Positions 3,297 to 55,887 of a stretch of DNA of 64,000 nucleotides are shown here, piece by piece. Source of the stretch: an uncultured Oscillospiraceae bacterium (GTDB lineage Bacteria > Bacillota > Clostridia > Christensenellales > CAG-314); assembly GCA_964607155.1 (NCBI GenBank), contig CAZSIF010000003.1, positions 19,498 to 83,497 on the forward strand, given 5' to 3'. The notes below the pieces were generated by a model. It ran no database searches. It saw only the letters and a program-made list of their open reading frames with translations, and was not told where the DNA came from. The translations under genes and the position numbers were made by a program. Within the stretch, counting starts at the first letter, position 1; each line of letters begins with the position of its first letter.

Positions 3297-3707
3297 ATGA
3301 AGGATGACGAACGTTTTGTAAAAGCATTTTTCGAGCACACTAACTCGCCGGAAAACACATCTTATGCTTTAATATCATTGTTGCGGTTTCGCAATAAGCT
3401 ATCAGGCACAAGATTACTTCGCACGGCATTGATGCACAGTCTAACGCATATCGACGAGCAGCTTACTGTAACGGAGGTGTATGCAGCTGTTGCCGAGCAA
3501 CACAATGTTACGGCAGCATGCGTAGAGAGAGCCATTCGTAACACAATACACGATTGCTATAATCACGGAAGTCTAAGGCTATTAAACGACATTTTTGCTT
3601 GCTCGCTAATAAACGATAAATACCCTCCGACCAATGCCGAGTTTATAACCGACGTTACGTCATACCTACACTTTTTGCTCATGCAAAATTCCAAAATTTC
3701 TGCGTAA
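3297..3707 (+). CDS. Stand-alone Spo0A C-terminal (DNA-binding) domain protein, no receiver domain
   Basis: 136 aa. The stretch ...[44 protein letters not shown]...[13 protein letters not shown] aligns by eye with the Spo0A effector domain encoded at 53481-54209 ([33 protein letters not shown]...KPTNGEFIALL). An AAAGGAGAG SD precedes the ATG. Confidence 0.75.
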   Translation: [136 protein letters not shown]

Positions 3708-11184: not shown

Positions 11185-11457
11185 ATGAACGGTTCGTTTG
11201 TAAGCTGTATATCCGATATTTGCGGAAAAGAGCTCGCGGCGCTTGTGGGAGGCTACAAGTATTCTGTCTTTTCGGGGAAAGCTGTTGTTGTCGAGGGGCA
11301 TCGCGGAATAGAGGTCTACTGCCGTGAGAGGATAAGGCTGTTGATTGGCAGAGGCTGGCTGGAAATAAACGGAAGTAACCTGTCCATCAAGTGTATGGAC
11401 AGGGGCTTTTGCGTTGTGGAAGGAAAAATAAATGCCGTTGGGGTACACGATGCGTAG
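11185..11457 (+). CDS. yqfC: YabP/YqfC-family sporulation protein
   Basis: 90 aa, with the content ...KAVVVEGHRGIEVYCRERIRL...GSNLSIKCMDRGFCVVEGKINAV. Its position directly upstream of yqfD-phoH matches the B. subtilis yqfC-yqfD-phoH order. Confidence 0.7.
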   Translation: MNGSFVSCISDICGKELAALVGGYKYSVFSGKAVVVEGHRGIEVYCRERIRLLIGRGWLEINGSNLSIKCMDRGFCVVEGKINAVGVHDA

Positions 11458-51350: not shown

Positions 51351-52727
51351 TTATATTGCGGGCAAAACAGACAGTGCGATTTTGCAAAAAATCATCAGCG
51401 ACAACGCGTCTACGATTGTTGTGATAACTGGACTTGCCACAACGGCAGGGTCAAGCTTGAGTGTTTTAGCAAGCAACGGCATAAGAGAACCGACAAGCTT
51501 GGCTATTACGACGGTTAAAAATAGTGATAGCGAGATTACAAAGCAAAGCTCAAATGTATAGGCATACTGAAAAATCAGTCGGTCAATAAGTATCAGTTTT
51601 GCAAAACAAGCTACGGCAAGAGCAAAACCGAGTATAAGCGAAACTCTAAATTCCTTCCAGACTACCCTTAGGCAATCTCTCGGGTGAACTTCGTCCAAGG
51701 CGAGCCCTCTTATCAGCGTGACGGAAGCCTGTCCGCCTGCATTTCCGCCTGTATCCATAAGCATCGGAACGCACGCAAAAAGCAGTGTGCTAAGGCTGTT
51801 GAGTGCGCTTTCGTAGTGGTTAATAATAAGTCCTGTAAAGGTTGCGGAAATCATGAGTATCAGCAACCACGGCAGACGGCTTTTGCAAGTTTGCCAAACG
51901 GTTTGTAGTAGATAGGGCTCGTCGGTGGGCGTGATTGCTGCCATTATCGCCATATCCTCTGTTGCCTCATCTTCGACGACATCCAGTACGTCGTCTACGG
52001 TTATTATGCCGACAATACGATTTTCCGTATCGACGACGGGTATTGCCGAAAGGTCGTACTTGGACATCTGCTGTGCCACAAGCTCTTTGTCGTCGTTTGT
52101 TTGCACGGATAGCACGTTGGTTTCCATCATATCGGCAACTATTGTTTCGTAGCTGCTGAGCAAAAGTTGCTTTACTGTTACCGTGCCTATAAGTCTACGC
52201 GTTTCGTCGGTGACGTAGCAGTTGTAGATGGTTTCCTTGTCGACGGCTTCCTGTCGTATGCGGTCAAAGCATTCTTTGACTGTCCAGCCCTTTTTGAGGC
52301 TGACGTACTCGACCGTCATAATCGTGCCTGCGCTATCTTGCGGATATTTGAGTATTTCGTTGATTTGCTTGCGCGTTTCCGGATCTGATTGGTTGATGAT
52401 GCGTTTGACGACGCTTGCCGGCATTTCTTCGATAATATCTACGGTATCATCCAAAAACATTTCGTCGAAAATAGCTTTTAATTCCGCGTCTGAAAAACTG
52501 TTTAATAGAAGTTCCTGACTGTCGGAGGACATCTCGACAAATGCTTCTGCGGCATTTTCCTTGGAAAGTAATCGAAAAATTATAGGCAGCTCCTTTTCCG
52601 GCAACAGCTCGAGTAATTGAGCCGTGTCCTGTGCTTTTTCGCAGTTTATCAAGCTTTTTATTTCTCTGTAGTTCTTTTTTTGTAAAAGCTCTGTAATTTT
52701 TTGTGCGTATTCAAGCAAATTTTTCAT
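51351..52727 (-). CDS. mgtE: Magnesium transporter MgtE
   Basis: 458 aa. N-domain, tandem CBS domains and a C-terminal five-TM region (PMLMDTGGNAGGQAS). AAAGGAGG SD. Confidence 0.93.
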   Translation of the reverse strand: MKNLLEYAQKITELLQKKNYREIKSLINCEKAQDTAQLLELLPEKELPIIFRLLSKENAAEAFVEMSSDSQELLLNSFSDAELKAIFDEMFLDDTVDIIEEMPASVVKRIINQSDPETRKQINEILKYPQDSAGTIMTVEYVSLKKGWTVKECFDRIRQEAVDKETIYNCYVTDETRRLIGTVTVKQLLLSSYETIVADMMETNVLSVQTNDDKELVAQQMSKYDLSAIPVVDTENRIVGIITVDDVLDVVEDEATEDMAIMAAITPTDEPYLLQTVWQTCKSRLPWLLILMISATFTGLIINHYESALNSLSTLLFACVPMLMDTGGNAGGQASVTLIRGLALDEVHPRDCLRVVWKEFRVSLILGFALAVACFAKLILIDRLIFQYAYTFELCFVISLSLFLTVVIAKLVGSLMPLLAKTLKLDPAVVASPVITTIVDALSLMIFCKIALSVLPAI

Positions 52728-52768: not shown

Positions 52769-52995
52769 AAAAAAATCCGCAGCCTGTAATAATAGCCGCA
52801 GATACCTGACCGTTTCAAACAAAATTGACGGAAACGTCGTCCTACCATTACAAGCTTTAGCATCACGGGGCGATGAAATTGCATTAGGTTATGCCTTGGT
52901 TTCGACATATCCTGCTAACCATACGTTGCGTGTCTCCACGCGTAAAGTCGGTAGCAATCCGTATCCCTGTGGTAGCCTCACCTACCGGATAACTA
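52769..52995 (-). promoter_or_regulatory. M-box (ykoK-type) magnesium riboswitch with terminator
   Basis: The transcript strand reads GGTAGGTGAGGCTACCACAGGGATACGGATTGCTACCG...CCGTGATGCTAAAGCTTGTAATGGTAGGACGACG. This matches the conserved AGGUGAGGCU and GUGCUAAAGCU blocks of the B. subtilis mgtE M-box. The 52776-52803 stem plus a U7 run forms the expression platform. Confidence 0.85.
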
Positions 52996-53010
52996 TTTTA
53001 TTGTGTCTTT

Positions 53011-53039: not shown

Positions 53040-53341
53040 CGCTTTTTTGATAAATAATATGCCGTCGATAATATTTTTGACACGTTGGTTTGGGGCTCGT
53101 CAAAGTGTTTGCGAGTGTCTTTGCGATAAAACGGATAAGTTGTACATATAAGCGGAACGTTTATAGCGTTTGTGGCAGCACTAAACTTGGAATGCTTAAT
53201 GCGGCGGTGGTGACTTGTGGTGTTATTTAACGATATAAACAATTGTGTCGTTGCTTTATTTGCCGTGCTGTAAGTTTGTCTATGGTGATGGGTTTGTGAG
53301 CGTTGGTCGTGTGCTGTGTATATATCGCCAAAAATAAACAT

Positions 53342-53431
53342 TTCGAGCAAAAAACAGACGGAATATGTTGTGTTTTCGACGAATATCGACGCTATATGCG
53401 AAAAACATATAAAAGCTTTTGTATTTCGACT
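53342..53431 (+). promoter_or_regulatory. Cluster of 0A-box-like heptamers upstream of spo0A
   Basis: TTCGAGC (53342), TTCGACG (53375), ATCGACG (53385) and TTCGACT (53425) lie in one orientation. Three match the 0A-box complement TTCGACA at 6 of 7 positions and TTCGAGC at 5 of 7. Two are 10 bp apart. TGCTAAAAT, an extended -10, follows at 53440-53448. Confidence 0.35.
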
Positions 53432-53480
53432 GTGCGATTATGCTAAAATATGCTTGCAAAACAGAATGCGGGAGGTAATA

Positions 53481-54209
53481 ATGATAAGAATAGGATTAAT
53501 TTCACAAAACGGCTTGAAGGAAAAGCTTGATGAAAATGAGCAATTTAAGGTCGTTTTTGACGTTGAGGGCAGCGAGGCGCGTAAAAGTTTGGAGAGTGTG
53601 CCCTGTGATGTGGTCATAACTGAGTTGATGATGTCGGGTGAAGATGGTTACGCTCTTTTGGAAAAGTATCGCGACATTAATTTTATCGTTGCGTCGGAGC
53701 TTAAAAGTGAGGTGTTTGTCGTAAAGGCATTGGATTTGGGCGCAAGGTATTATCTTGTCAAGCCTCTGGAGTATGGCGTTTTGGAACAGCGCATTCGTAA
53801 CGTCGCGGAGGGTGACAGACTGGGAGCAAAGCTTGTCAAAAAGCGTAGTGTGTCGGAAAAGACTTTGGATGAACGCATCAGTAATATTTTTGTGAGCGTC
53901 GGTATACCCGCACATATCAAGGGTTATCAATTTTTGCGTGAAGGTATCAAGCTTGCTGTTGACGATCCGCCGATTATCAACGCAATAACAAAATCGCTGT
54001 ATCCGTCCATTGCTAAGCGTTTCGATACAACGCCGAGCAAGGTGGAACGTGCAATACGGCATGCAATCGAAGTGGCTTGGAATAGGGGCAAAATCGAAAA
54101 TATCAACAGCGTGTTTGGCATCAAGGTATACTCCTCGTCGGAAAAACCAACCAATGGTGAATTCATTGCGTTACTGGCGGATAAAATGCTGTTGGAATGC
54201 GCTTATTGA
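53481..54209 (+). CDS. spo0A: Sporulation master regulator Spo0A with a degenerate receiver domain
   Basis: The ATG at 53481 follows GGGAGGT. The C-terminal domain is canonical (HIKGYQFLREGI...TTPSKVERAIRHAIEVAWNRG...KPTNGEFIALLADKM). In the receiver, SQ replaces the DD pair and E replaces the phospho-acceptor Asp (DVVITELMMSGEDG). Confidence 0.88.
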   Translation: MIRIGLISQNGLKEKLDENEQFKVVFDVEGSEARKSLESVPCDVVITELMMSGEDGYALLEKYRDINFIVASELKSEVFVVKALDLGARYYLVKPLEYGVLEQRIRNVAEGDRLGAKLVKKRSVSEKTLDERISNIFVSVGIPAHIKGYQFLREGIKLAVDDPPIINAITKSLYPSIAKRFDTTPSKVERAIRHAIEVAWNRGKIENINSVFGIKVYSSSEKPTNGEFIALLADKMLLECAY

Positions 54210-54299: not shown

Positions 54300-54887
54300 A
54301 TGCAGTACTTAAAGAAGGAAATACGCGAAAGAATTTTGACGGCAGCGGTGGAGGAATTTAAGACGCACGGCTACTCGGACGCATCTATCAGGAATATTGC
54401 CAATAATGCGGAAATTTCACTGGGCAATGTTTACAGGTATTTTACCAACAAGGAAGCCTTGTATTTTGCCGTTATCAATCCGTTTATGGAAAGTATAAAG
54501 CAATATATTGAAAGGGACTTTAGTTTTCAGGGTAAAACGATGAGTGAGGTTGCCGATACGTTATTGGCATTTCTCGTCCAATACAGCGATGAAATTTTAA
54601 TTATTCGTAAGGGTAACACTATCCATCAGGAATCCTTTATTAAGTACATGGTAAAGGTCATCGCGGAAAAGCTCAATGAACTTATTGATGTTTCTTTTCC
54701 GGAAATCGGCAAAAAAATTTCCAACCCCGATTTCTGTGACGCCGTGGCGGAGGGCTTTTTAACAAGTCTTTTTGATGTGTTGCAAAAGGGCGACGAGCGT
54801 GAAATGAAAGAGCGTTATGCTCGCGAGCTTGTCACATTCTATTTCGGACATTTAATCGATAGGTTTAACCATTTCGATTTGGATTAA
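54300..54887 (+). CDS. TetR/AcrR family transcriptional regulator
   Basis: RERILTAAVEEFKTHGYSDASIRNIANNAEISLGNVYRYFTNKEALY is a TetR-type HTH. Confidence 0.85.
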   Translation: MQYLKKEIRERILTAAVEEFKTHGYSDASIRNIANNAEISLGNVYRYFTNKEALYFAVINPFMESIKQYIERDFSFQGKTMSEVADTLLAFLVQYSDEILIIRKGNTIHQESFIKYMVKVIAEKLNELIDVSFPEIGKKISNPDFCDAVAEGFLTSLFDVLQKGDEREMKERYARELVTFYFGHLIDRFNHFDLD

Positions 54888-55248: not shown

Positions 55249-55887
55249 ATGTCAGGTAATTTGGAAGGCAACAGCTGCAGCGAAAAGATATGTATTCAGG
55301 CAAAAAAGGTTTTTGATGCTTGCATGAAGCAAACTACGCTACAGCAAATAACGGTAAATGTAACGGGGGTTACGCCGACCTCTCCGGAAACGCCGTTACG
55401 ATTTGTTAGTTGTAAAAGCACATCGACGGTGGGGGACGTTCAAAAACTTGTGGTCGAACGTTTGCAGGAGCGTCCGCGCTACGGCAGAGTAGAGGCGGAT
55501 ATCGTTGTCCCCGTGGAGGTTACTTATGTCGATTCAAACAATGTCGAGGGCAGCGGCACAGGGAGTGTAACCGTTCCTGTGGACGTGGTTATGTATTTGC
55601 CTGAGCCGTCTATTATTCCATATAGGATAGAGGCGAGCGTATCGGCTATAAGTCCGGACGGGGATTATAGTCAAACTCAGGTAATTGATGGTGTTACAAA
55701 TTACATATTTATTGTTAACTGTTGCGTCACTACGATACTCAAGGTGACTATGGATGTGGAGCTTATTGTGCCGAGCTACGGCTATGCGGTCATACCTCCG
55801 TGTCAGGAATACACAGAGGAGGTTTGCTCTGGCTATTTTGAATTGCCGCTTTATCCCGGAGGTAGGGGCGGCGGCACTAACGTGTAA
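55249..55887 (+). CDS. Hypothetical Cys-containing protein (possibly spore-associated)
   Basis: 212 aa. AAAGGAGG SD. N-terminal CSEKICIQAKKVFDAC, a beta-strand-rich middle section, and a C-terminal CQEYTEEVCSGYFELPLYPGGRGGG. I recognise no family. Confidence 0.55.
   Translation: MSGNLEGNSCSEKICIQAKKVFDACMKQTTLQQITVNVTGVTPTSPETPLRFVSCKSTSTVGDVQKLVVERLQERPRYGRVEADIVVPVEVTYVDSNNVEGSGTGSVTVPVDVVMYLPEPSIIPYRIEASVSAISPDGDYSQTQVIDGVTNYIFIVNCCVTTILKVTMDVELIVPSYGYAVIPPCQEYTEEVCSGYFELPLYPGGRGGGTNV

Follow-up and report, generated by a model that had tools for sequence, protein, structure and literature searches.

A spo0A-type gene was found on the forward strand at positions 53481-54209 of the window, the 64,000-nucleotide stretch analysed here, which comes from contig CAZSIF010000003.1 of an uncultured Oscillospiraceae bacterium. 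The gene was recognised from its open reading frame (ORF), its ribosome-binding site and its Pfam and TIGR02875 matches, and encodes 242 amino acids (aa) plus stop. Its ribosome-binding site, GGGAGG, is localised 5 nt ahead of the ATG. Gene callers choose at times an alternative start, the GTG at 53316; the homologues always begin with M-I-x-[IV]-G-L and the DNA upstream shows no protein-type conservation. In Pfam, the protein matched Response_reg (44.9 bits versus a cutoff of 30.2, residues 10-106) and Spo0A_C (136.4 bits versus a cutoff of 25), and the full-length protein passed the NCBIfam spore_0_A equivalog TIGR02875 narrowly, with 206.4 bits (cutoff, 200). All the features of the gene and of its promoter given below are on the forward strand.

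An earlier note on this DNA had described the product as a Spo0A with a canonical effector domain and a receiver lacking the phosphorylation chemistry, and the first part of this description was confirmed by the Pfam and structural matches. The Spo0A_C DNA-binding and activation domain (53856-54206) matched the solved C-domains of Bacillus subtilis and Geobacillus stearothermophilus Spo0A, 1LQ1 and 1FC3, with phmmer E values of about 1e-38 (1.3e-38 for 1LQ1), and its predicted fold superposed on 1LQ1/1FC3 chains A, C and D with Foldseek TM scores of 0.84-0.93 and 55-58% identity. The recognition helix SKVERAIRHAIEVAW (54036-54080) differs from that of B. subtilis Spo0A in a single residue. The AlphaFold2 (AF2) model of the whole protein, obtained from 35 homologues, had a mean predicted local distance difference test (pLDDT) value of 87.8, with low confidence only in the linker (residues 114-123).

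The pseudo-receiver domain (residues 1-110, 53481-53810) kept an intact (beta-alpha)5 fold in the model, with pLDDT values of 88-96 in each 10-residue block. The closest receiver fold found with Foldseek was that of phosphorylated Spo0A-N, 1QMP (TM score 0.81-0.85, root-mean-square deviation ~1.6, 25% identity). The active site was mapped with phmmer against PDB chains of B. subtilis Spo0A-N (9phz), Paenisporosarcina Spo0A-N (5wq0) and DrrD, and hmmalign to a hidden Markov model (HMM) built from 45 canonical Spo0A receivers gave the same columns, leaving the first nine residues unaligned. Both procedures placed Glu48 (GAG, 53622-53624) at the position of the phospho-acceptor Asp56, Ser72 (53694-53696) at the Thr/Ser switch position (Thr86 in B. 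subtilis), Tyr91 (53751-53753) at the aromatic switch position (Phe105) and Lys94-Pro95 (53760-53765) at the pocket Lys-Pro (Lys108-Pro109). The conservation of Tyr91 and Lys94 was at least 90%, and Pro95 was invariant. The Mg-binding Asp10-Asp11 pair of B. subtilis Spo0A is replaced by Ser8-Gln9 (53502-53507), which in the global MAFFT alignment lies opposite the DD/ED of canonical Christensenellales Spo0A; since the profile alignments skipped the N-terminus, this assignment rests on the global alignment and on the end of the first strand. The AF2 strands were beta1 (2-7), beta3 (44-47), beta4 (68-72) and beta5 (88-93), so that Ser8-Gln9 is found at the C-terminal end of beta1 and the other residues named at or just past the ends of beta3, beta4 and beta5, as in CheY-like receivers.

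In addition to these substitutions, five residues are deleted directly past the acidic-pair position with respect to canonical Spo0A in the MAFFT alignment, helix alpha1 is only six residues long in the AF2 model and the alpha3-beta4 loop is six residues shorter than that of B. subtilis Spo0A. Helix alpha1 is the docking helix for kinases and phosphotransferases. The profile alignment and structure prediction that the earlier note had proposed thus put Glu48, and no Asp, in the Asp56 position. Its change of DD to SQ (by the global alignment and the beta1 end), its change of the phospho-Asp to Glu (by phmmer, hmmalign and the strand ends of the model) and its shortened alpha3-beta4 region were all upheld, and Ser8, Gln9 and Glu48 support its proposal of a receiver without phosphotransfer chemistry. 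Its statement that only the Lys was retained was wrong, because Ser72, Tyr91 and Lys94-Pro95 are all kept. In C. difficile Spo0A, the D10A, D11A, D56A, S86A and K108A alleles each lower sporulation, and D10A, D11A, D56A, I58A and K108A all lower the homodimerisation signal, significantly for D10A and D56A; therefore, the pocket chemistry missing here is essential in canonical Spo0A.

The same active-site pattern was present in the 120 closest database proteins and was seen again among the best 80 species-representative genome loci, and the survey of relatives that had been proposed for these substitutions found them throughout a clade of 127 distinct sequences without the acidic pair, belonging to Candidatus Fimimonas and allied Christensenellales-type metagenome-assembled genomes (MAGs) from the gut. 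As the pattern recurs in more than 100 homologues, the substitutions are not due to chance or to sequencing error. Across the 127 sequences, the acceptor residue was Glu in 104 and Asp in 23, with no other residue, and the second position of the acidic pair was Gln in 110 and Asn in 11 (121 together). A neighbour-joining tree required at least 10 switches between Asp and Glu at the acceptor position within the clade.

Genome loci were taken from species-representative genomes as the best 80 of 573 matches, which gave 80 loci from 80 assemblies. The clade contributed 27 of these assemblies (L001-L027) and the other loci numbered 53. Both acidic-pair positions were non-acidic in 24 of the 27 clade loci; L007 and L021 had one Glu, and L012 had Leu at the second position. 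Among the clade genomes are Candidatus Fimimonas gallinarum (85% identity) and Ca. F. merdipullorum; the others are MAGs that carry the labels Clostridia, Christensenellaceae, Oscillospiraceae or 'Corallococcus sp.' and that derive from the gut of chicken, rabbit, goat, sheep, deer, yak and human. In the records of L001, L006, L014 and L022 and in the NCBI taxonomy (taxid 2840648), Candidatus Fimimonas is placed under Myxococcaceae and sister MAGs are named 'Corallococcus sp.'; this placement looks like a taxonomy error, the gene content (spo0A, sigK, yqfC, yqfD and spoIIR) being clostridial.

Within the clade, the receiver had a mean identity of 67% and a ratio of nonsynonymous to synonymous substitutions (dN/dS) of ~0.12, and the C-domain a mean identity of 92% and a dN/dS of ~0.03, both ratios being rough because dS was saturated at ~1.8. 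These values indicate that the receiver is clearly under purifying selection and not decaying. The comparison of conservation element by element between the clade and the canonical groups was confounded by their unequal divergence.

Changes at the acceptor site were also observed outside the clade. Asp-Asp with a Glu acceptor, Asp-Asn with Glu, Glu-Ser with Ser, and Gln or Asn as acceptor were found among loci L036, L039, L042 and L050 and proteins P0123 and P0128, and distant representatives of the Spo0A family had Asn, Gln, Ser or Gly as acceptor, or Asp-Asp with a Glu acceptor. The distribution of these residues suggests that the phospho-acceptor has been lost recurrently and independently among Christensenellales-type Spo0A proteins.

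Among the best 80 of the 573 matches, no second spo0A was found in any of the 27 clade genomes; these 80 loci extend down to ~50% identity, which is the range of canonical Christensenellales Spo0A. In L025, a receiver-only paralogue of 101 aa (L025:10904-11209) is located directly downstream of spo0A; it is similar to the Spo0A receivers of this clade, with Asn-Gln at the acidic pair and Asp as acceptor. The window itself contains a stand-alone Spo0A_C ORF of 136 aa (3297-3707, forward strand; Pfam, 73 bits) beside a tRNA gene (2671-2759), in which the VERAIR motif is kept and the activation helix is divergent. It had just six homologues among 5.8 billion sequences and no relatives in viral contigs, so that it was discarded both as a conserved partner and as a phage gene. 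With so few homologues this ORF is not a clade-wide partner of Spo0A, and the control by this paralogue that had been put forward in the earlier note was not supported. A further architecture appeared among the top matches of the query: P0121, P0122, P0125 and P0127 are receiver-free proteins of 394-454 aa with three to four tandem Spo0A_C domains.

The 260 nt ahead of the start codon were aligned for 24 clade loci. Only two elements were conserved and almost nothing else: TTCGACA at about -96, which in reverse complement reads as the 0A box TGTCGAA, and an extended -10 element, TGnTAnAAT. An exact TTCGACA was found between -140 and -60 in 16 of the 24 loci, compared with a background of 0.22 per kb on both strands, and most of the other loci had a version with one mismatch in the aligned position. 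In the window, two tandem 0A-like boxes align with this clade-wide footprint, the first being TTCGACG (53375-53381) and the second, 3 nt past it, ATCGACG (53385-53391), in a 7+3+7 layout (TTCGACG-AAT-ATCGACG). A third 0A-like box, TTCGACT (53425-53431), lies across the -35 region, its CGAC column being aligned in many relatives, and is followed by the extended -10 element TGCTAAAAT (53441-53449), which occupies the conserved columns. The boxes were phased by 10 bp in the window, in L010 and in L011, and L010 repeats the 7+3+7 layout of the window. Upstream of the spo0A gene of L011, five to six 0A-like heptamers (TTCGACA, ATCGACA, AACGACA and others) were observed in exact 10-bp phase between about -111 and -50. 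Spo0A-activated σA promoters typically have tandem boxes in 10-bp phase and one further box across the -35 region. The footprint suggests that spo0A is autoregulated, probably positively, through its 0A boxes. This autoregulation and the tetR gene next to spo0A are better-supported candidates for its control than the Spo0A_C-only paralogue. No convincing operator-like palindromes were found around spo0A and the neighbouring tetR gene.

On its upstream side, spo0A adjoins mgtE (51351-52727, reverse strand), whose leader contains an M-box magnesium riboswitch (52833-52996, reverse strand; Rfam RF00380, 91.6 bits) that fills much of the mgtE-spo0A intergenic region. Downstream there is a gene for a TetR-family regulator (54300-54887, forward strand), with generic TetR matches only in NCBIfam, and then a Cys-rich ORF of 212 aa (55249-55887, forward strand) without Pfam or NCBIfam match, which is conserved at 79-85% identity across the clade downstream of tetR. 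Genes for a metallophosphoesterase, mraZ, rsmH, a penicillin-binding protein (PBP), murE and mraY follow from 56355 onwards. Identity of the Cys-rich ORF with SipL/SPOCS would have tied the locus to the canonical spo0A-DZR-sipL-spoIIR arrangement, but this candidate was rejected (BLASTP E 2.8; hhalign probability 0.2%). Of the 24 closest species genomes (L001-L024), most kept the gene order mgtE / spo0A / tetR / ... / mraZ-rsmH-PBP-murE-mraY, and L004, L007, L012, L013, L022 and L023 had differing arrangements. Among the best 80 matches this order was conserved within the clade only.

Of the 27 clade loci, 24 had a TetR-family gene beside spo0A, in three arrangements; this pairing was absent from the other 53 loci. 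Tandem downstream was the commonest arrangement, the gene being divergent upstream in L007, L012 and L013 and convergent in L023. Among possible replacement inputs into the control of spo0A, the linked TetR-family regulator is the best candidate. Sixteen relatives encode next to spo0A (L002:9404-9787, L016:9500-9841, L023:12080-12463 and 13 further loci) a conserved protein of ~125 aa that has an acidic C-terminal tail and, by prediction, two transmembrane helices, and it stayed with the spo0A-tetR pair through rearrangements; no trace of it was found in the window between 52997 and 53480. Synteny of spoIVB with spo0A failed as a test of orthology, since spoIVB was absent from the annotated flanks both here and around canonical spo0A in related genomes. 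In the latter the order is frequently spo0A, zinc-ribbon protein gene, sipL, spoIIR, with spoIIR within two or three genes of spo0A, and in the clade locus L023 spoIIR is two ORFs upstream.

The sporulation-type genes that the earlier note had listed were recovered. YabP/YqfC (11185-11457) scored 50.8 bits against a Pfam cutoff of 27, SigK 277 bits against the NF004471 cutoff of 252, and YqfD 131 bits against a Pfam cutoff of 25, although in NCBIfam the last was far below its equivalog cutoff (109.6 versus 256.7 bits). The BclA-like gene was weak: it has collagen repeats, and its BclA_C-like tail remained below the cutoff (31 versus 38 bits). The genes of the window are consistent with a retained sporulation programme, which is far from proof of one.

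Taken together, the active-site residues and their distribution make it fairly probable, in our judgement, that the Spo0A of this lineage has a receiver turned into a phosphorylation-independent pseudo-receiver. Such a receiver would not accept a phosphoryl group from a kinase, from Spo0B or from acetyl phosphate; the protein would still bind 0A boxes, and its activity would be set by the amount of Spo0A made. Positive autoregulation could operate through the tandem 0A boxes upstream of the extended -10 promoter, putatively without a conserved -35 hexamer. A partner or a ligand may act on the still-constrained receiver, and the linked TetR-family regulator could supply the replacement signal. 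The loss of the metal site and the shortening of alpha1, in a receiver where the acidic residue, the Ser/Tyr/Lys residues and the Gln are selected, point to a pocket that is structural, perhaps active-like, and not catalytic. As a more speculative step, a metal-free network of Glu48, Gln9, Ser72 and Lys94 may keep the domain in an active-like, dimer-competent state; that the protein is 'constitutively active-like', as the earlier note had it, we can only infer.

Several observations weigh against a phosphorylation-independent Spo0A programme of this kind. The 23 clade members that keep Asp may retain residual phosphorylation and, in the passage of Maule et al. that cites Green et al. 1991, the exchange of Asp for Glu is not by itself enough to activate Spo0A of B. 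subtilis, so that a phosphomimic role of the Glu should not be taken for granted. The 0A-like boxes of the window are each one base off the consensus. Perfect 0A boxes were not enriched across the 64 kb (7 found versus 8.9 expected), which leaves the phylogenetic footprint ahead of spo0A as the only informative signal. The evidence for a single copy consists of the 80 best loci from 80 assemblies, again the best 80 of 573 matches only, and Galperin et al. 2022 reported at least two spo0A genes in 11 of 118 Spo0A-encoding genomes (~9%), 10 Clostridiales genomes having two and one having three. Finally, one study predicted that most Christensenellales MAGs are non-sporulating, a CAG-74 MAG being among the exceptions.

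The multiple spo0A genes of some Clostridiales lead directly to the main rival explanation, in which sporulation is governed by another spo0A of the genome, canonical and phosphorylatable, and the gene described here is a paralogue acting as an auxiliary 0A-box regulator. Our view of the source genome was limited to 64 kb and that of the relatives to their best matches, the TIGR02875 score was barely above its cutoff and spoIVB is not next to this spo0A. However, the canonical spo0A genes of related genomes are likewise not beside spoIVB, spoIIR is close to spo0A both in canonical loci and in L023, each of the 27 clade genomes appeared once among loci that reached ~50% identity, and the C-domain is very strongly constrained; we consider a paralogue unlikely. 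Somewhat less probable again is that the gene is a relic in a non-sporulating lineage, where Spo0A would survive as a transition-state or metabolic regulator independent of phosphorylation. Many non-spore-formers encode Spo0A according to the literature, and the prediction for most Christensenellales MAGs and the YqfD score below the NCBIfam equivalog cutoff agree with this explanation. It is countered by SigK above its NF004471 cutoff, by YabP/YqfC and YqfD above their Pfam cutoffs, by SpoIIR in the clade genome L023 and by the collagen and BclA_C-like gene of the window.

The acceptor site is always acidic, with Asp in 23 members, the Ser, Tyr and Lys switch residues are retained, and a Glu can in principle be modified (Maule et al.). 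Unconventional phosphorylation, for instance through alternative metal ligands in the members with Asp or as a modification of Glu48, would account for these features, but both metal-binding carboxylates are missing, the second being a conserved Gln/Asn, alpha1 is truncated and no such Glu modification is known in bacterial receiver signalling (Maule et al.), which makes this explanation very improbable.

Returning to the phosphorylation-independent pseudo-receiver, a broader proposal can be made only tentatively, and we regard it as possible more than probable: a family-level clade, Candidatus Fimimonas and its allies, would have uncoupled its Spo0A programme from His-Asp phosphotransfer and would use TetR-gated positive feedback through tandem 0A boxes instead. 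The programme would presumably be endospore formation, the TetR-family protein would be a co-inherited ligand sensor and, in most relatives, the likewise co-inherited protein with two transmembrane helices may join the circuit.

Reviews and experimental papers describe the phosphorylation of Spo0A as the sporulation switch in all bacilli and clostridia. In our full-text literature searches, a natural Spo0A without the acceptor Asp was nowhere described, apart from a count in Maule et al. 2015, whose Table S6 lists 7 of 391 Response_reg~Spo0A_C sequences (Pfam 26.0) as aspartate-less. These seven have the same architecture and the same class of defect as the protein described here, but they are a bare count, given without organisms, residues, gene context or function, from which membership in the clade cannot be told. 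If the proposal is correct, the clade would provide the first Spo0A in nature that works without phosphorylation, and the sporulation decision, or whatever Spo0A controls in these bacteria, could be wired without kinases. Gln9, Glu48, Ser72 and Lys94 would then offer an evolutionary template for a locked receiver, and the TetR gene and the small membrane protein would be new candidate inputs. Pipelines for gut MAGs that take the presence of spo0A as a predictor of sporulation ignore whether the protein can be canonically activated. The weight of the finding depends on the spo0A copy number and on the sporulation capacity of the lineage.

Compared with the canonical Spo0A of B. subtilis, G. stearothermophilus and C. 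difficile, the protein has the same two domains, the Spo0A_C fold with a recognition helix one residue away from that of B. subtilis, a receiver fold nearest to Spo0A-N and 0A-box motifs ahead of its own gene. It differs in the replacement of Asp10-Asp11 by Ser-Gln and of Asp56 by Glu, in the five-residue deletion at the start of alpha1, in the alpha3-beta4 loop shortened by six residues, in a receiver only ~25% identical to 1QMP and in the absence of an adjacent spoIVB. Pseudo-receiver regulators are well known as a class, and the domain shows the features of this class, being recognised as a receiver and yet having Glu as acceptor and non-acidic residues at both acidic-pair positions; unlike typical aspartate-less receivers, 65% of which keep the first residue of the acidic triad, it has lost this residue too. 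The orphan atypical regulators BldM and WhiI of Streptomyces are comparable as developmental master regulators whose receivers are independent of canonical phosphorylation and that rely on partners or dimers. They belong to another phylum and have a NarL/FixJ output, and no heterodimer partner is known for the protein studied here. ChxR of Chlamydia trachomatis, which is active without phosphorylation, has an OmpR/PhoB winged helix instead of Spo0A_C as output, and shares with the protein of the window the receiver fold, the Glu at the acceptor position, the pocket Lys and a DNA-binding output.

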